Source: a virus
Lineage: Monodnaviria > Loebvirae > Hofneiviricota > Faserviricetes > Tubulavirales > Inoviridae
Direction: 5' to 3' (one strand)
Virus record (IMG/VR): IMGVR_UViG_2645727717_000001
DNA length: 7,037 nt
In this document: piece by piece, positions 1 through 7,037 of the stretch
Numbering within the stretch: the stretch's first letter is position 1
How the letters are laid out: every line of letters starts with the position of its first letter
Program-made: the position numbers and the translations under genes
The notes under the pieces: generated by a model
Databases searched by the model: none
What the model was told of the DNA's origin: nothing
Seen by the model: the letters and a program-made list of their open reading frames with translations, nothing else

Positions 1-260
1 TTAACCTGGTAATATCTCTCTTGGGTGACTCTCCAAACATCCGCGAATATTCCCGACAGAAATGGGATAGCTTTCGTAACCGACAGCATAGGCTGCTGTG
101 GTGACATCGTAATGTTCATTCAGCATCTGTCGCCTGACTTCATTGAGACGTAGCCATTTCTGATACCAGAGTGGACTCATTCCCGCTTGATCCGTCCTTA
201 AATAAGTAACAGCACCCTCTGGTGTTTTCGTATGCAGTGTCTATGCGACAGACACTGCGC
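1..260 (-). pseudogene. AraC/XylS-family transcriptional regulator, C-terminal HTH region, decayed (at least two frameshifts); runs off the left edge of the window
   Basis: Minus-strand translation gives ...AGMSPLWYQKWLRLNEVRRQMLNEHYDVTTAAYAVGYES in one frame, then SHFCREYSRMFGESPKRDITRL in a second frame from ~pos 70; together these match the AraC-family signature (GxSPxxY...RL...VGYES.SxFSREYxRxFGxSP). A further frame break lies around 185-195 and a stop at 241-243. The second frame stays open past position 1. Confidence 0.65.
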
Positions 261-393: not shown

Positions 394-421
394 ATTTAAC
401 ATAATATACATTATGCGCACC
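394..421 (-). other. dif: dif chromosome-dimer resolution site (XerC/XerD target), exact 28-mer
   Basis: Plus strand 394..421 is ATTTAACATAATATACATTATGCGCACC, the exact reverse complement of the canonical E. coli dif GGTGCGCATAA-TGTATA-TTATGTTAAAT. XerD arm = 394..404, central region = 405..410, XerC arm = 411..421. Confidence 0.9.
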
Positions 422-801: not shown

Positions 802-1050
802 TCACCACCACCATGCAAACGGCTTGTTACTGACAGGAAATGCGATACCGTCAGCATCACGACCACGCAAGACCTGATTAAGAAGCTTTCTGACTTCACG
901 GCGCTCTGGCCGGGTCATCATCATATTGCGATACCAGGACGGTGATTTATCAAACCACCTGGAACAACTGGTAAAATGTGAACTAACACGACGGTAAGAC
1001 TTCATGCGACCACTGGGGAGTCGATCGCGCACCCTGCTTTTTACAGACAT
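802..1050 (-). CDS. Hypothetical small basic protein (82 aa), unknown function
   Basis: Only open frame >=60 aa in the region between gIV and dif. ATG at 1048..1050 with GAGG 8 nt upstream and a 21-bp palindrome just upstream. Arg-rich with a C-terminal WWW. No similarity recognised by eye; could be spurious. Confidence 0.3.
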   Translation of the reverse strand: MSVKSRVRDRLPSGRMKSYRRVSSHFTSCSRWFDKSPSWYRNMMMTRPERREVRKLLNQVLRGRDADGIAFPVSNKPFAWWW

Positions 1051-1119: not shown

Positions 1120-1200
1120 ATATAGAGGCTCCGTGGTGAAACGTAAAATCCGGCTCTTGATGTGGCCATACCGGGGCTTAACGCACCCGCCACGGCCCCA
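1120..1200 (-). other. GC-rich dyad-symmetry region immediately downstream of gIV (candidate terminator or packaging/origin hairpins)
   Basis: GGGGC...GCCCC and CCGTGG...CCACGG inverted repeats, two TGGCCA palindromes. Position corresponds to the start of the Ff intergenic region. No clear U-tract. Confidence 0.3.
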
Positions 1201-2466
1201 TCAAAGCGCGCGAATAATATGAGCGGTCAGCAGAACATACATAATGCGTTGCTCATTACTGTCAGCTTTACTCCTGAAAAGCCAGCCAATCACCGGAATT
1301 TTACTGATAAACGGTACAGAACGGTCAGCATTGCTGGATGATGAATCAATCAGCCCACCAAGTAAGAGCGTCTGGCCATCCTTAATCTGAACTGTTGTCT
1401 GTATCTGACGCTGGTTCGTAATAATATCAGATGCCTGGTCATCGTTGCTGATGGAATCAGCGCGGGTATCAATAGTAAGTACAAGCTGGCCGTTCCCCAT
1501 AACAACAGGCGTCACCTTCAGAGATACGCCAACATCATGACGTTCAATGGTCTGAAACGGATTATTTACCCCGGCAGATTCACCCGTAACTTTACCCGTG
1601 ATAAAGGGTACATTTTTACCAACAGAAATATAGCCTGTCTGACCAGACTGGGTAAGAATCCGGGGCGTTGAAATCACCTTAGACCGGGAGTTACTCTGCA
1701 CCGCACGCAGGGATACGGCCAGAACATTACCATCAAAAATGCCAAAAGAGCCGCCGGCAGTCGACAATGCGCTACCCAATGCTGAAGTATTAAAGCCCCC
1801 TGCTACTTTATGCCCGGATGCAGAACCGGCTGCAAACGACAAATCAACACCATCCGACAGACTGGTTTCAAACATCAGCGACTGAATCAAAACCTGATCG
1901 CGGGCAACATCCACTGAATTGATGAAATCGGAAAGGACGGGAAGCAGCTCATCAGGTGCGGAAACAATCAGGGAGTTATTGCCAGGATAATCCACAACAT
2001 TACCCCCGCCATTAGAATCCAGATAAATTTTAACCAGTTGCTGAACATCAGACGATCGAACTTTTGTCAGCTTAAAATTTCTGACAGTAAACTCCACTGG
2101 CGCTGGCTGATAAGATGGCTCAGACGGGAAAGAGTCATAAGACCGAATATCAGCATCATCAAGGTCTGACGCCATCTGTGATGGTAATTTTGACGGCAAA
2201 GAGACTACTGCAGGATTACCCGAAAGCATGACAAATCCGTTAGCATTCAGTACAGATTTGAAGAAACTATCAATATTTGTGGGATTAACATCAGCATTAA
2301 ATACCGTTACGGTTCCTTTAACATCAGGATTAACAATAACGGGCTTGCCAGTTTTTGATGAATACCACTGGACAAATGAGCGAACGGATGAATTATTCAG
2401 GTTAACAGTTTCAGCAGAAACGCAAAAAGAATAAGTGAATAAGATAGCAATGAAAAATAAACGCAT
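1201..2466 (-). CDS. IV: pIV outer-membrane secretin for phage extrusion (421 aa)
   Basis: Collinear similarity to M13 pIV from the signal peptide through the C-terminal ...YVLLTAHIIRAL (M13 ...YVLVKATIVRAL), including GTVTVF, GGSFGIFDGNVL, PFITGKVTGESAGVNNPFQTIER, QTLLLGGL. Start taken at the internal Met (MRLFFIAILF..., ATG 2464..2466) with AGGAG 9 nt upstream; the longer track ORF would overlap gI. Confidence 0.93.
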   Translation of the reverse strand: MRLFFIAILFTYSFCVSAETVNLNNSSVRSFVQWYSSKTGKPVIVNPDVKGTVTVFNADVNPTNIDSFFKSVLNANGFVMLSGNPAVVSLPSKLPSQMASDLDDADIRSYDSFPSEPSYQPAPVEFTVRNFKLTKVRSSDVQQLVKIYLDSNGGGNVVDYPGNNSLIVSAPDELLPVLSDFINSVDVARDQVLIQSLMFETSLSDGVDLSFAAGSASGHKVAGGFNTSALGSALSTAGGSFGIFDGNVLAVSLRAVQSNSRSKVISTPRILTQSGQTGYISVGKNVPFITGKVTGESAGVNNPFQTIERHDVGVSLKVTPVVMGNGQLVLTIDTRADSISNDDQASDIITNQRQIQTTVQIKDGQTLLLGGLIDSSSSNADRSVPFISKIPVIGWLFRSKADSNEQRIMYVLLTAHIIRAL

Positions 2467-2473
2467 AATAATA

Positions 2474-2848
2474 TTACTCCTGGCAGGTGATGTTTTGTAA
2501 ATAACGGCCTTTTCTGATAACAATTCGGCAGGCATCTTTAATATCAACAGAATAACCATCTTTAATTAAATCAAAATACTGGTACTTCATACCCTTAGCA
2601 TCAACAAACGTAACGGAAACATCAAAACCAAGTTGAGAGAAGGAATTAATTGATAGTCTCGGTAAATCGCTGGTACTGTCAGGAGTTACTGCCCTCACCT
2701 GTTCAGCATGAGCAGATTTAATAGCCGAAATCTCATCAGCATTCTTACCAGATTGTAGCCAGAAGCCAAGTCCAAGCCCCAATGCCAGAAATGAAAGCAT
2801 TAATATTAATCGGTTTGATTTTCGAAAGTAAATTTTCGTGAGGCGCAT
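2474..2848 (-). CDS. XI: pXI, in-frame internal start within gI (124 aa)
   Basis: Met241 of pI (MRLTKIYFRK...) aligns with the M13 pXI initiator Met241 (MKLTKIYLKK...) and is followed by a hydrophobic transmembrane stretch. ATG at 2846..2848. Confidence 0.5.
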   Translation of the reverse strand: MRLTKIYFRKSNRLILMLSFLALGLGLGFWLQSGKNADEISAIKSAHAEQVRAVTPDSTSDLPRLSINSFSQLGFDVSVTFVDAKGMKYQYFDLIKDGYSVDIKDACRIVIRKGRYLQNITCQE

Positions 2849-3568
2849 ATAATAATTAAACCCTTTGTTAACGGAAAACTGACCATGTGTAATAAATGGC
2901 GGCAAAAGCGAATAAGCACCATGCGGATAATTATCAGTAAAAGCCTGTTTTGTATTGTAGGCGGAATATAATGACTTTCCGGTATACATCCATTTATCAA
3001 CAGTTATTGAATTAACGTTGTCACCATATTTAACAATACCAAAGTGAACCTTTGGTAAAGAAAAACGAGCACCTGAAATTATATTCATGAAAGAACCAAT
3101 AAATGGGATGTTTAACTTATCTGAACGACGACAATAAACAACATGCTCCGCAAGCGCCAGCCGTGCTTGCTTGTCCATAATCGAAATATCCTGAATCAGA
3201 AAAATAATATCCCAGCCTAATTTACGGGCATGCAAAAACCAGTCAATAACTGGCTGTCTGTCTTTATCCCCCCACGAACGGGAATTAAACCAAGTCCCAC
3301 ATTCATCAAGAACCAGTAGACCATTACGTGATTCATCATAGGAAGTATTGCCTACACCAATAGCCAGCAGATCATTTAATGAAGGTTTGTCAGGGACACG
3401 AATCACGCGTGTTTTTTTCGCATAACGACCAACCATGGGCATATTATGTAGTTTAATATCTAGATTAGTGGCTACAGGACAGCCTTTAGCTAGTCTTTCC
3501 TGTATTCTGGCAACACTAACCAGTGTCTTACCTGAACCTAATTTCCCTGTTACGACATGAACCGTCAT
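2474..3568 (-). CDS. I: pI assembly ATPase (Zot-like), inner-membrane morphogenesis protein (364 aa)
   Basis: N-terminus MTVHVVTGKLGSGKTLVSV... closely matches M13 pI MAVYFVTGKLGSGKTLVSV.... Walker A GKLGSGKT at 3524..3547. Long identical runs (GLLVLDECGTWFN, QPVIDWFLHARKLGWDIIFL, DKQARLALAEHVVYCRR). RBS AAGGTGA upstream; the ATG abuts the gVI stop. Confidence 0.95.
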   Translation of the reverse strand: MTVHVVTGKLGSGKTLVSVARIQERLAKGCPVATNLDIKLHNMPMVGRYAKKTRVIRVPDKPSLNDLLAIGVGNTSYDESRNGLLVLDECGTWFNSRSWGDKDRQPVIDWFLHARKLGWDIIFLIQDISIMDKQARLALAEHVVYCRRSDKLNIPFIGSFMNIISGARFSLPKVHFGIVKYGDNVNSITVDKWMYTGKSLYSAYNTKQAFTDNYPHGAYSLLPPFITHGQFSVNKGFNYYMRLTKIYFRKSNRLILMLSFLALGLGLGFWLQSGKNADEISAIKSAHAEQVRAVTPDSTSDLPRLSINSFSQLGFDVSVTFVDAKGMKYQYFDLIKDGYSVDIKDACRIVIRKGRYLQNITCQE

Positions 3569-3910
3569 TCAAATCACCTTGTTTGCATAATCAAGGAATT
3601 TTTGTTTTAAATCGAAAACAAAAACGCTAATTCGAGTAATCATAATGACATTAACACAGGCCTGAAAATGGTCTGGTAAGACAGATGCAATTAAATGTGA
3701 AAAATCAGCAGGAAGGCCATTGTACATAACCTCAGCAAGATATTGCATTAAGAGAGTGACAGTTGTTGTAATTAATGCAACTAATGCTACAGCTATCAAT
3801 CCTGTTTTAGTCGCAAGGCGTGCGAGGAAGCTTGCCACATAGCCAATAAATAAAGGAACAAGCCCAATAAGAAAACGCAATAGTGCAGGAATACCTAATA
3901 ATAAAGGCAT
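3569..3910 (-). CDS. VI: pVI minor coat protein (113 aa)
   Basis: MPLLLGIPALLRFLIGL... vs M13 pVI MPVLLGIPLLLRFLGFL...; C-terminal FVFDLKQK vs FIFDVKQK. The ATG overlaps the gIII stop (TAATG). Confidence 0.9.
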   Translation of the reverse strand: MPLLLGIPALLRFLIGLVPLFIGYVASFLARLATKTGLIAVALVALITTTVTLLMQYLAEVMYNGLPADFSHLIASVLPDHFQACVNVIMITRISVFVFDLKQKFLDYANKVI

Positions 3911-5153
3911 TACTCACCTCCTTTACGAAGTAATGAGGTTAAAGACGTAAATACATACCAGAAGGTAAGGCAATAAAAAATCCATGAAAGCGCATCTTTG
4001 ATAGTAAGTAATTTATCGCATTCAATATCAATCTGATAAATTTCACCGGGGAAAATAACAAGTTCAGAACAACCATTACCATTAGGTAAACTAGGGAGCA
4101 TAGCACCTTTATTCAGGAATGCTTCCCATAAAGCACCATGAGAATCTTTAGCTATTCCTAATTCGGATTCAGCCAATGTTGAAGCACTGTCTAATTCGGA
4201 ATCCCCTTTCCCATAACGAGAATCACCGCCAGAAGGATCAGCAAAACGTCCGGCTCCGCGAGTAAGGTTATTTATAGCGTCACCAAGACGATTTATATTA
4301 TTTTTAGTCTGTTCATCAGCCGATTTTTTATCATCAGATGAGGTGTCTTTTTCTGTTAACTTATCATGAATCTCACTGGCCATTTTAGGTGAAGCACCTT
4401 CAATAGCTGACTGAATATCTCCTTTGGTAATACTTGAGCCATTACCACCTGAGTTACCGCCACCTGAGTTACCACCGCCTGTATCACCTCCTCCAGTATC
4501 ACCACCCCCCGTATCCCCGCCTCCAGTATCCCCACCATCGCCAGCAGGAGAAGAAGGCTTATCTGAAGGATCGGCTACGGTTCCGGTAGGCTTCCATGTC
4601 GCCGCACAAACAGTGCCATCACCCTGGCAAACAATGACGCCAGTGGCCTCATATTCACAACCGTTATAATAAATATAACGATCACCATCATAAGATAGAC
4701 ATTATTAAATACACCTTCTTCAGGAGGTTTAGCTTCACAAATTTCTTCAGGTGTAGGCTCGGAGGGTTTTTCATCAGGAATAGAACGCTGAATATCACCG
4801 ATAATATAAGCGGTTAAATTCCAGTATTTATCTTTCTGGCCCGGAGAGTCGCTGTAGGTACAAGCGTCAGAAAACACAAGACGGAATTCAGAGTTAGGCC
4901 ATACTCCCTCATAAGTTGGTTTAACCTGAGTAAAAACACCCTGAGCACTGTCTTTAGCCCCCTGACAGGCAGAAGCCTGCATAGCTGCATCAATATAATA
5001 AACAGTTTGTTTAGTGCCATCTTGGTTGGTTATTTGCTTACTTTCAGAATAGGCAGAGCTTTGAAAAGTAGATTTAGTAATGCTTTCCCATGAATCAGCA
5101 TGTGAAAAAGAAGAAATAAGAATAGCGGAAATAATTAATATTTTCCTTTTCAT
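3910..5153 (-). pseudogene. III: pIII adsorption / minor coat protein, split across two frames by an apparent 1-nt deletion near 4698
   Basis: Frame A (5153 -> stop 4575): signal peptide MKRKILIISAILISSFSHA, ~150-aa N-terminal domain, Pro/Glu-rich linker, ...[16 protein letters not shown], then nonsense. Frame B (open 4701 -> 3913): [39 protein letters not shown] (cf. M13 N1 DRYANYEGCLWNATGVVVCTGDETQCYGTWVPIG), Gly-rich linker, C-terminal domain ending ...LPSLP...IDCDKL...FWYVFTSL. Span is 1244 nt, i.e. 3n+2. Confidence 0.8.
4444..4533 (-). repeat. Six imperfect 15-bp tandem repeats encoding the pIII Gly-rich linker
   Basis: Minus strand GGGGATACTGGAGGC / GGGGATACGGGGGGT / GGTGATACTGGAGGA / GGTGATACAGGCGGT / GGTAACTCAGGTGGC / GGTAACTCAGGTGGT, encoding (GGDTG)x4 then (GGNSG)x2. 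Confidence 0.8.
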
Positions 5154-5160
5154 AATAACC

Positions 5161-5190
5161 CGCTTTAATAAAGGGGCAACGAGTGCCCCT
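5161..5190 (-). terminator. Rho-independent terminator between gVIII and gIII
   Basis: Stem AGGGGCA (5172..5178) / TGCCCCT (5184..5190) with 5-nt loop; on the transcribed minus strand it is followed by TTTATT. Same position as the central terminator of Ff phages. Confidence 0.6.
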
Positions 5191-5199
5191 GAGTGAATT

Positions 5200-5442
5200 T
5201 TAAACTGCTTTCGAAGAGAACTTTTTAAACAAACGAATGGCAAGACCCGCACCAACGACAGCGACAACAGCAGGCCATACTTTTGCAATAAGATCGTTTG
5301 CCTGAGTCAGCAGTGAATCCATTGCCTGACCTGCATAGTCAGTGCTACCCGTTGCGCCATCAGCAGCAAAACAACTTGCAGAAACAAAAAGTGCGGTTGA
5401 AGCCACAGCAATTTTAGATTTAATAACAGAAATGACTTTCAT
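5200..5442 (-). CDS. VIII: pVIII major coat protein precursor (80 aa)
   Basis: Signal peptide MKVISVIKSKIAVASTALFVSASCFA, acidic mature N-terminus ADGATG..., hydrophobic core, basic C-terminus LFKKFSSKAV (M13: LFKKFTSKAS). RBS GGAG 9 nt upstream. Confidence 0.93.
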   Translation of the reverse strand: MKVISVIKSKIAVASTALFVSASCFAADGATGSTDYAGQAMDSLLTQANDLIAKVWPAVVAVVGAGLAIRLFKKFSSKAV

Positions 5443-5471
5443 ATAAATAACTCCATTTAAGTTAGGTTTTA

Positions 5472-5567
5472 TTACATTAATCGGTCAGATAATGTTTTAA
5501 ACGAACCGACCGCATAGAAAAGGGCAAATCCTAAGGTATAAGCCCCGAAGAAATACACAATATACAT
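5472..5567 (-). CDS. IX: pIX minor coat protein (31 aa)
   Basis: Hand-translated MYIVYFFGAYTLGFALFYAVGSFKTLSDRLM; resembles M13 pIX (MSVLVYSFASFVLGW...TRLM...). ATG overlaps the gVII stop (TAATG). Below the ORF-track length cutoff. Confidence 0.7.
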   Translation of the reverse strand: MYIVYFFGAYTLGFALFYAVGSFKTLSDRLM

Positions 5568-5653
5568 TAACGAATGACACCTGCGGTAATAGCACCAAGA
5601 CCAAAAGAAATAACAATGCCGGATGCTATTAATATTTGAATAACATCATCCAT
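5567..5653 (-). CDS. VII: pVII minor coat protein (28 aa)
   Basis: Hand-translated MDDVIQILIASGIVISFGLGAITAGVIR; resembles M13 pVII C-terminal half (...QISVVLCFALGIIAGGQR). ATG is 2 nt after the gV-analog stop; AAAGG upstream. Confidence 0.65.
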   Translation of the reverse strand: MDDVIQILIASGIVISFGLGAITAGVIR

Positions 5654-5655
5654 AA

Positions 5656-5973
5656 TTAACCTTTTATTTCAGTGATCCCACCATCTGATGAAATATTATA
5701 AGTCACACCTTCTCTACCCTCCATTGACCAGACACGAACATATACAGGGATTTGAACTAATTTCCCCGTAAAACTATTGGCTTGATTCATGACTCCGGCG
5801 TTCACAAGGGACTGTGATACACGAATAATTATTTGGTCTTGCTTAGTACCGCCAAAACCATCAGGGATCTCTAAACCGATACCAATTTCATTGTAATAGC
5901 CCTGACCATTGACTTTATTACGCTGACGAGCACCAAGCATTTTACCTTTTACAAAAAGACCATAATTAGACAT
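5656..5973 (-). CDS. Putative ssDNA-binding protein, gV positional analog (105 aa); no resemblance to Ff pV
   Basis: Sits between the replication initiator and gVII exactly where gV lies in Ff. AAGGAG RBS 7 nt upstream of the ATG. Function assigned by position only. Confidence 0.5.
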   Translation of the reverse strand: MSNYGLFVKGKMLGARQRNKVNGQGYYNEIGIGLEIPDGFGGTKQDQIIIRVSQSLVNAGVMNQANSFTGKLVQIPVYVRVWSMEGREGVTYNISSDGGITEIKG

Positions 5974-5984
5974 ATCACGCTCCT

Positions 5985-7037
5985 TTAATGCCAGTTACTG
6001 GCATGTGAAATACGGTTGTAATCAAAAATAAAACCTTTCTCATAAACCCATGTAGGGATTTGGGCTGGTTTAGCTTCAAGTGTTCTTACTAATGGAACAA
6101 CATTATTTGAATCAGGGGATTCACAATAAAAATTAATATCTATCCCGAAAGACAATAATTCTTTTCGGTGCCTGTAAAATGTTGGCTTTGGAAGCATTTC
6201 TTTCATGTTTGCGCCCTGCTTCCACAGTAAATATGTTGATTGTATTTTTCTCGGCAGTTTAACTATTTTTTCATCGGTCAAAATGGCATTTTGATTCATT
6301 TCTATTCTCCCTACATATTCAGAGAATAATTTGTTTGGAGTATCGATATTCCAGTTACTGCCAAGCGTAAGGTTTAAGTCAATTAATTCTGTTGTTCTTA
6401 GCGTCAATTCAATTCGTAATTTATCTTTAGACCAGTCAAGTAAGCCAGCTTTAACAAACTCTTCTGCTATCTGGTGTCCTTTTTTACCAGAAATATGCTC
6501 ATCATATTTTGAATAAAATTTCAGGCTCCACCGCCGGGAGTTTTTCCCTAAGTAAACAGTTCCACCTTTACCACAGGCGCGACCATGGCGAGTTTTAGCC
6601 TTGAATTCTGCGGCATATAGCCATGCGCGGACATTTTCCAGCGTTGATAATGAATACATGTAGTTAATATCAATGCGTGAGATCTTAAATTGCCCTGCCA
6701 TTACCTGACGATAGGATGGTAGATCATGAGGAATATGAAGTAATGCCAATATTCTTGCGTAAGCGGTTAATACCAGCCCCTGCAAATCATCGGAGCCAAT
6801 AACAGAATGCCCCTGAAGAAATTTTGACGGATTTCCGTCAATATAAAGATGAGTTGCCCGGCCCTCCCCGTCTGATCCAACAGATCGTACTTTCATTGTG
6901 GATTCGTATGAACCGCGAACGGTCAACCGCTTTACTGTTTCCCACTCCACTGCACCGTCAGCATCAACGCTGACGACACTACCGGCCGGTAACGGTCGGT
7001 GTGTGCAAGGAAGAATTCCGGTAAACCAGTCGATCAT
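5985..7037 (-). CDS. II: Rolling-circle replication initiator, gII equivalent (350 aa), likely of the RstA / Phage_CRI type rather than Ff pII
   Basis: Large ORF upstream of the gV analog beginning MIDWFTGILP...; no collinear similarity to M13 pII beyond MID. The ATG is the last 3 nt of the window, so an upstream extension cannot be excluded. Family assignment is from memory of N-terminal motifs. Confidence 0.75.
   Translation of the reverse strand: MIDWFTGILPCTHRPLPAGSVVSVDADGAVEWETVKRLTVRGSYESTMKVRSVGSDGEGRATHLYIDGNPSKFLQGHSVIGSDDLQGLVLTAYARILALLHIPHDLPSYRQVMAGQFKISRIDINYMYSLSTLENVRAWLYAAEFKAKTRHGRACGKGGTVYLGKNSRRWSLKFYSKYDEHISGKKGHQIAEEFVKAGLLDWSKDKLRIELTLRTTELIDLNLTLGSNWNIDTPNKLFSEYVGRIEMNQNAILTDEKIVKLPRKIQSTYLLWKQGANMKEMLPKPTFYRHRKELLSFGIDINFYCESPDSNNVVPLVRTLEAKPAQIPTWVYEKGFIFDYNRISHASNWH

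Follow-up and report, generated by a model that had tools for sequence, protein, structure and literature searches.

A filamentous prophage at Escherichia coli dif that very probably combines an IKe/I2-2-like morphogenesis block with a YpfΦ/CUS-1-type backbone

The stretch of DNA analyzed here, 7,037 nucleotides (nt) from an Inoviridae record (IMGVR_UViG_2645727717_000001) and hereafter called the window, holds filamentous phage genes whose long open reading frames (ORFs) all lie on the minus strand in the canonical order of the Ff phages (M13/f1/fd). The element very probably is a mosaic prophage residing at the Escherichia coli dif site, in which a morphogenesis block like those of IKe and I2-2 is joined to a backbone of the YpfΦ/CUS-1 type. 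The window is 99.96% identical to the chromosome of E. coli SCPM-O-B-12142 (NZ_CP144928.1), from which it differs by two substitutions (window positions 477 and 5270) and one 1-nt deletion. In that chromosome, two identical tandem copies of the element, with a unit of 9,078 bp, adjoin a perfect dif site (GGTGCGCATAATGTATATTATGTTAAAT), which lies at 394-421 (minus strand) of the window with 0 mismatches and 0 occurrences expected by chance. This site forms the junction between prophage and chromosome, with the crossover inside dif at about 406/407. Positions 1-393 are nonphage chromosomal flank, as assigned from the Prokaryotic Genome Annotation Pipeline (PGAP) annotation and from the homology between the tandem copies, which begins only at 407, and contain a frameshifted AraC-type helix-turn-helix (HTH) pseudogene at about 1-186 (minus strand). 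Part of the window is matched by more than 4,400 of 5,426 E. coli genomes, and UPφ-type matches begin at 394. A complete circular genome with its origin in 1-1200 is excluded by the matches in E. coli genomes, by the comparison of the tandem copies, and by the dif site; what the original prediction treated as a genome is 6.6 kb of a 9.08-kb dif-integrated prophage together with about 400 bp of chromosomal DNA. Among complete E. coli genomes, 51 carry at least 80% of the window. Besides SCPM-O-B-12142, four complete E. coli genomes show the same architecture at 89 to 91% identity, as does a metagenomic contig of independent origin at 83%.

The right end of the window encodes the replication proteins, namely, a 350-aa rolling-circle initiator of the II/X family beginning MIDWFTG (pII; gII, 5985-7037, minus strand) and a 105-aa protein in the gene V position (pV; 5656-5973, minus strand). 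Both ORFs are exactly as originally predicted, and their Pfam matches mark them as real genes. Next comes the morphogenesis block, gVII to gIV plus a packaging hairpin (window about 1155-5650, all on the minus strand), whose proteins are 51 to 74% identical to those of IKe and I2-2 and 26 to 52% identical to those of M13; values for pIV, pI, pVIII, pIII, and pVI are global protein identities. The block opens with gVII (5567-5653; 28 aa; Pfam Inovirus_G7P_2, 3.5e-11; 70% identical to I2-2 and 67% to IKe), the first gene of the IKe/I2-2-like module, followed by gIX (5472-5567; 31 aa; 50 to 57% identical to I2-2 and IKe pIX) and the major coat gene gVIII (5200-5442; 80 aa; Phage_coatGP8, 1e-19; I2-2 57%, IKe 57%, M13 42%). 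The attachment protein gene gIII, split in the window (3910-5153; G3P_pilus-bind in the N-terminal part, 2e-25; I2-2 53%, IKe 53%, M13 26%), is succeeded by the minor coat gene gVI (3569-3910; 113 aa; DUF5455; I2-2 52%, IKe 51%, M13 39%), the Zot family assembly ATPase gene gI (2474-3568; 364 aa; Zot, 1e-38; I2-2 64%, IKe 65%, M13 52%), and the secretin gene gIV (1201-2466; 421 aa; Secretin, 8e-45; I2-2 74%, IKe 70%, M13 51%). The contrast between modules drawn in the original prediction is borne out by these values, but its description of the structural proteins as close to M13 was overstated, with 39 to 52% identity to M13 (36% over 58 aa for the pIII C terminus) against 51 to 74% to IKe/I2-2. 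At the end of the block, the packaging (morphogenetic) signal hairpin (1157-1204, minus strand) begins in the gIV stop codon (1201-1203) and continues downstream. It aligns at 76% to I2-2 2226-2298, overlapping the annotated "morphogenetic signal" at 2260-2330, and the 121-nt stretch containing it has a DNA fold of -22.4 kcal/mol (z = -2.85).

Outside the morphogenesis block, homology switches to YpfΦ. A block 89.8% identical to YpfΦ in nucleotides over 2,088 nt extends from just upstream of a candidate origin beyond the window, through a repressor gene, gII, and gV, to end at the gVII start codon. This proximal recombination junction falls at the gV stop/gVII start (TAATTATGGAT; 5645-5658), where the YpfΦ block ends at unit position 3836 and I2-2 homology begins at 3834; I2-2/IKe homology thus starts within two or three bases of the YpfΦ block end. 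The distal recombination junction, located at 1122-1156 from blastn block ends and a three-way alignment, separates the packaging hairpin that follows gIV from the region upstream of an 82-aa ORF. Here, I2-2 homology stops and a second YpfΦ block begins, running from orf82 to dif at 79 to 97% identity. Between the two junctions, tblastn against YpfΦ gave no matches for gVII, gIX, gVIII, gIII, gVI, or gI and aligned gIV at only 27% identity. Against the phage collection, megablast returned only a 420-nt gI match to I2-2, and the sensitive blastn mode was required.

On the mosaic reading, the morphogenesis block would come from the IKe/I2-2 (Lineavirus-like) branch of Ff-like phages, and all else, including gII/gX, gV, the 82-aa ORF with dif (394-1120), the RstR-like repressor, and the candidate origin, from a YpfΦ/CUS-1-type backbone. 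The co-occurrence of pII and pV, both nearer to I2-2/YpfΦ than to Ff/IKe, points to a replication module of the I2-2/YpfΦ type. The original prediction had proposed a modular exchange as in I2-2. That kind of exchange is what the comparison supports, with the morphogenesis block similarly close to I2-2 and IKe and with IKe, PEar1, and M13 carrying the other replication type; the nearest replication module, however, is that of YpfΦ (96% for both proteins) and not that of I2-2, whose replication proteins are distant.

The initiator had been predicted to show no similarity to Ff pII, which did not hold. BLASTP aligns it with M13 pII at E = 8e-8, and it matches Pfam Phage_CRI (PF05144; 2e-72, 244 bits against a cutoff of 21.7), Pfam G2P_X_C (PF05155; 7e-33, 113.5 bits against 25), and NCBIfam TIGR01629 (rep_II_X; 259.9 bits against 29, residues 2-338), the same models that match the pII proteins of IKe and I2-2. 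An assignment as an RstA/Rep_trans-type protein was rejected, since that Pfam match is marginal (E = 0.006) and below the cutoff. By these profiles, pII is a diverged homologue in the Ff pII family. Its identity is 96% to YpfΦ (the Yersinia pestis NCTC5923 prophage), 87% to the UPφ prophage of ECONIH2, 56 to 57% to I2-2, and 22 to 25% (global) to IKe, PEar1, and M13. The motifs KxLQGH, RxD, SRxxxxxY(175)xK, and NVVPL are invariant between the window pII, M13, and IKe. In the alignment, Y175 in SRRWSLKFYSKYDE falls opposite M13 Y197 in SRHRTLVAYLKHVE, a column that is invariant across six sequences. Tyr197 of f1 gpII is reportedly the residue that links covalently to the nicked DNA (Asano et al., 1999), and Tyr175 is the predicted catalytic residue here. 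The window pII is 60 to 70 aa shorter than Ff/IKe pII because several Ff/IKe insertions are missing from it. Disruption of the YpfΦ gII, YPO2274, whose product is 96% identical to the window pII, abolished phage production (PMC4266046).

Whether gII contains an internal gX start had been held not to be judgeable from sequence; several features now speak to it. An ATG at 6299-6297 (codon 247) is preceded by a Shine-Dalgarno sequence, AGGGAGA, with a 7-nt spacer, and would open a 104-aa in-frame product (predicted gX, 5985-6299, minus strand). The annotated gX of I2-2 begins at the same codon. The 24 nt around this start are nearly invariant in six relatives, with the ATG and 15 nt upstream fully invariant, while their gII genes diverge by up to 20% in nucleotides. 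PHROG 17464, a 100-aa profile of pX length, matches pII residues 247-346, and G2P_X_C spans residues 253-335. Given the conserved start site, the position of I2-2 gX, and the PHROG 17464 match, a 104-aa pX is very likely made from this internal start.

For pV, in contrast to pII, the predicted lack of Ff similarity was confirmed. The protein belongs to Pfam Putative_G5P (PF17426; 1.6e-51), as does I2-2 pV, while M13 and IKe pV belong to PF02303 (1e-42 and 2e-23). The window pV has no PF02303 match and no BLAST match to IKe, PEar1, or M13 pV, and hhalign of its family against M13/IKe pV gives a probability of 0.3%. The two pV types also fall into different PHROG families (1547 for the window type versus 1199), and NCBIfam has no model for either. 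Its identity is 96% to YpfΦ, 93% to ECONIH2, and 39 to 42% to I2-2. The family is small, comprising 65 clusters at 50% identity with members of about 100 to 120 aa in a profile search of a representative library, and that search gave no link to other families. The predicted fold is a five-stranded β-barrel with a helix between β3 and β4, that is, an oligonucleotide/oligosaccharide-binding (OB) fold like that of single-stranded DNA-binding protein (SSB), so that a fold suited to binding single-stranded DNA (ssDNA) is predicted after all for a protein outside the Ff family. Its identity to the OB domains of bacterial SSB and PriB (e.g., 1qvc, 1eyg, and 6cqk) is only 10 to 16%, and it differs from them in having no acidic C-terminal tail. 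A search of all PDB sequences with the family profile found nothing significant, the best matches being a BepA-type protease (E = 0.08) and PrgE (E = 0.13). Going by its predicted fold and gene position, pV is best described as a nonorthologous SSB-like replacement of Ff g5p that would bind ssDNA. Thus, of the replication proteins, pII reads as a diverged Ff homologue and only pV, by family membership, is truly non-Ff.

A candidate plus-strand origin lies outside the window, 625 to 675 nt upstream of gII, in a 52-nt block (16663-16713 of the surrounding locus, L004) that is 85% identical to I2-2 2666-2716. Significant noncoding similarity to the I2-2 intergenic region is limited to this block and the packaging hairpin. 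All loci with this pII type have conserved the block. It forms two adjacent hairpins (-16.2 kcal/mol, z = -4.9), the second of which shows compensatory changes from GTCTCA/TGAGAC to GTACCA/TGGTAC. An Ff-type origin core was found neither in the window nor in the whole 25-kb locus with up to three mismatches allowed. Conservation places the candidate origin with the I2-2/YpfΦ type in its recognition sequence, as the original prediction of a non-Ff origin implied. However, the candidate retains the two-hairpin layout of the Ff (M13)/IKe origin, and its first loop contains TAATA, like the Ff nick site CTTT^AATA; although its stem sequences are unrelated to theirs, it appears to be remotely homologous to the Ff origin. 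By conservation and analogy with Ff, we infer a nick at GTTGGT^AATA.

Taken together, the replication module would work like that of Ff: pII would nick the viral strand in the loop of the conserved hairpin, with Tyr175 forming the covalent link to DNA, and pX from codon 247 and the 105-aa OB-fold protein would sequester single strands and switch replication toward packaging. The inferred parts of this scheme are the nicking and its exact position, the binding of ssDNA, and the function of pX.

The 82-aa ORF (802-1050, minus strand; annotated WP_071792182.1) has no Pfam match and is a YpfΦ-type component, 82% identical in the Y. pestis prophage and 79% in a Brenneria phage and absent from I2-2, IKe, and M13. 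Its product is basic and Trp/Arg-rich, and it sits where CTXφ has toxin genes. Three more genes lie outside the window, upstream of gII and transcribed divergently from it, and encode a 148-aa HTH_3/CI-like repressor and proteins of 140 aa and 369 aa of unknown function; the 82-aa, 140-aa, and 369-aa accessory ORFs gave no informative Pfam or PHROG annotation, and an Rfam scan of the window found no matches. The RstR-like repressor (L004 16210-16656, plus strand) is 99% identical to the Y. pestis prophage gene YPO2273. In the Klebsiella locus and in that of an Aerococcus metagenome-assembled genome (MAG), the repressor slot holds a 40%-identical HTH protein, and in ECONIH2 it holds an unrelated 60-aa ORF. 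At its flanks, gII is kept in all these loci, and the origin block is kept wherever examined (the Aerococcus MAG was not among these). Exchanged in this way, the repressors look like heteroimmune variants, by analogy with CTXφ rstR.

Between dif and the origin hairpin, an accessory block (L004 16735-18404; unit 81-1750) containing the 140-aa and 369-aa ORFs is exchanged independently of all else: YpfΦ homology breaks off at 81 nt from dif and is found again from about 22 nt before the origin hairpin. Such a pattern would be expected if replication ran across two different tandem prophages. Where the tandem copies meet (L004 18404-18500), the sequence reads GGTGCGCATAATGTAcgactcGTTATGTTGAAA, an imperfect dif-like site. 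After it comes a long, imperfect inverted repeat that surrounds a GC-rich hairpin; this repeat, also beyond the window, resembles the forked-hairpin ssDNA attP of CTXφ. The annotated genes of the prophage include no recombinase or phage integrase. Integration at dif, a dif-like attP, and the absence of an integrase gene point to a Xer-dependent integrative filamentous phage (integrative mobile element exploiting Xer, IMEX; CTXφ/YpfΦ-like).

Within the morphogenesis block, gIII is broken into two ORFs by the 1-nt deletion at about 4695 (plus strand, CATAAG-ATAG in the window versus CATAAGAATAG in NZ_CP144928.1), which shifts the frame downstream of the N-terminal pilus-binding domain; in the RefSeq copy, gIII is intact and encodes 414 aa. 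The Gly/Pro-rich linker of pIII (window 4383-4575) is encoded by short tandem repeats, and the opposite strand also reads as peptide sequence. The number of linker repeats differs between UPφ strains (PMC7307601).

The architecture itself is already known from I2-2 and from UPφ901/YpfΦ. UPφ901 and related phages reside in tandem at dif as prophages and have an IKe/I2-2-like core, with gII and gV more than 85% identical to those of YpfΦ, and Shapiro and Putonti (2020) explicitly read this architecture as recombination between modules (PMC7307601). The window phage shares with UPφ (UPφ901; ECONIH2) its gene order, tandem residence at dif in Enterobacterales, IKe/I2-2-like morphogenesis, and YpfΦ-like gII/gV; its core proteins are 82 to 96% identical to those of ECONIH2, and the 140-aa accessory protein is 98% identical. 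However, its nucleotide identity to ECONIH2 is only about 84%, while published UPφ members are about 98% identical in protein. Downstream of gIV, ECONIH2 has ORFs of 102 aa and 77 aa where the window phage has the YpfΦ-type 82-aa ORF, and neither gave a tblastn match in the window prophage; from the published description, they are probably the UPφ-defining h1 and h2. The 60-aa ORF of ECONIH2 stands where the window phage carries the RstR-like HTH repressor, and the window gII is 87.8% identical in nucleotides to YpfΦ versus 80.5% to ECONIH2. By these differences, the window phage is an undescribed sibling of UPφ and not a member of that set.

YpfΦ of Y. pestis and CUS-1 of E. coli K1 (Derbise and Carniel, 2014; PMC4266046) are likewise integrated in tandem at dif. 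They share with the window phage pII (96%), pV (YPO2275, 96%), the repressor (YPO2273, 99%), the origin hairpins, and the orf82-dif end, but their whole morphogenesis block is unrelated and the accessory genes between dif and the origin differ. I2-2 (NC_001332) joins modules of these two kinds at the same boundaries, from the gVII start to the packaging signal; unlike the window phage, it is nonintegrating, 6,744 nt long, and without dif, repressor, or accessory genes, and its replication proteins are far more distant than those of YpfΦ. The same module boundaries, enclosing coat genes, assembly genes, and the morphogenetic signal, are said to have been reported for I2-2 by Stassen et al. (1992, J Mol Evol). 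Ff and IKe are linked to the window phage by a pII of the same family with the conserved Tyr motif and an internal gX start just before the C-terminal domain, and are set apart by the low pII identity and the pV family given above. Enterobacterial UPφ/Ypf-like phage genes, with pII 88 to 94% identical, also occur in a Candidatus Nanosynbacter (Saccharibacteria) MAG (L008) and in the Aerococcus MAG (L007), where they almost certainly reflect misbinning or contamination and not a true host. The 9,278-bp contig of Brenneria alni (L009) is entirely a Ypf-type phage with a terminal repeat of about 80 nt, and its overlapping ends suggest a circular replicative form or a collapsed tandem prophage.

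These relatives bear on how often such exchange has happened. In the gII tree, two clades differ by about 20% in nucleotides, one with the window phage, YpfΦ, and the Klebsiella locus and the other with ECONIH2, the Saccharibacteria MAG, and Brenneria. The Brenneria phage is collinear with YpfΦ across the morphogenesis genes, but its gII clusters with that of the ECONIH2 UPφ and not with that of YpfΦ; the block it shares with ECONIH2 is 88.5% identical and ends at the same gV/gVII boundary. Each clade thus pairs a phage of IKe/I2-2-like morphogenesis with one of the Ypf type (the window phage with YpfΦ and ECONIH2 with Brenneria), and the window phage and ECONIH2 are 85 to 87% identical in gI and gIV. 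Since the gII clades mix morphogenesis types in phages with such similar gI and gIV, at least two independent exchanges occurred at the same junction, and I2-2 may be a third independent swap. We therefore lean, by a narrow balance, toward a broader view in which the gV/gVII start codon and the stretch after the packaging hairpin are recurrent swap points, at which the whole morphogenesis cassette, and the receptor specificity that goes with it, is repeatedly exchanged in dif-resident enterobacterial filamentous prophages against a YpfΦ-type backbone for replication, immunity, and integration. As a secondary point of this view, the pV of the module may be, judging from its predicted fold, an SSB-derived OB domain that displaced g5p.

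Other histories could be proposed for this arrangement. The I2-2/YpfΦ-type module might be ancestral to the whole clade of IKe/I2-2/UPφ-like morphogenesis, so that IKe and PEar, and not I2-2, would be the recombinants, having reacquired an Ff-type module. The structural-gene tree, (M13,((window, ECONIH2),(I2-2,(IKe, PEar1)))), is in its favor, and the 56% identity of pII between the window phage and I2-2 is comparable to that of pI (64%), pIII (53%), and pVI (52%), which is compatible with codescent. However, the divergence of IKe from M13 is likewise proportionate (pII 59% versus pI 51% and pIV 48%), so both scenarios need two events and neither is favored; on these identities, either I2-2 or IKe could be the recombinant of the Lineavirus branch. 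Moreover, the near identity to YpfΦ means that exchange continued in either case. We consider this ancestral module possible but unlikely. Far less credible is a history with no exchange at all, in which gII and gV are orthologues of their Ff/IKe counterparts, evolve fast, and diverged vertically along with all other parts of the genome. The Pfam/TIGRFAM families, two-domain layout, and internal-start position that pII shares with Ff/IKe pII would fit such a history, as would the two-hairpin layout of the origin, but the breakpoint data contradict it and exclude it for practical purposes: the gII-gV block is 88 to 90% identical in nucleotides to YpfΦ, whose morphogenesis genes lack detectable similarity, and this identity stops within a few bases at the gVII start. 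In addition, pV differs from Ff g5p in both family and OB subtype, and in each of two separate clades the gII tree disagrees with morphogenesis type. Least plausible of all is an assembly chimera of two coresident dif prophages, one UPφ-like and one YpfΦ-like, which can be ruled out, even though heterologous dif prophages can coreside and tandem arrays are hard to assemble (PMC7307601), because the two tandem copies in the complete RefSeq chromosome are identical with the same junctions and because the four additional complete E. coli genomes (89 to 91%) and the metagenomic contig (83%) share the architecture.

The mosaic prophage at dif remains the reading we prefer, and its homologies, breakpoints, integration site, conserved start, conserved hairpins, and predicted fold are directly supported. 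Several points nevertheless weigh against it or its details. All assignments for this phage are computational, and the origin and nick are assigned only by conservation and Ff analogy, outside the window; a minus-strand origin was not located. The function of pV comes from gene position and from a fold predicted on a shallow alignment of 14 close sequences, and PHROGs labels the family "unknown function." The window copy may be defective unless the gIII deletion is a sequencing error. Finally, these data fit either direction of exchange, with either lineage as the donor of a given block.

If the view of recurrent swap points is right, the window phage would be a previously undescribed hybrid, essentially YpfΦ recoated with a conjugative-pilus-specific virion. 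The mosaic confirms the evolution of filamentous phages by modules that was proposed for I2-2 and restated for UPφ901. What it adds to published work are the precise breakpoints, the recurrent swaps at the same boundaries, and a set of predicted assignments that can be tested, including the origin hairpin and nick motif, the gX start, Tyr175, and the SSB-like fold of pV. The virulence-associated YpfΦ/CUS-1 backbone circulates in E. coli with a different virion, probably one specific for conjugative pili, and such a change of virion would alter the host range and spread of this backbone.

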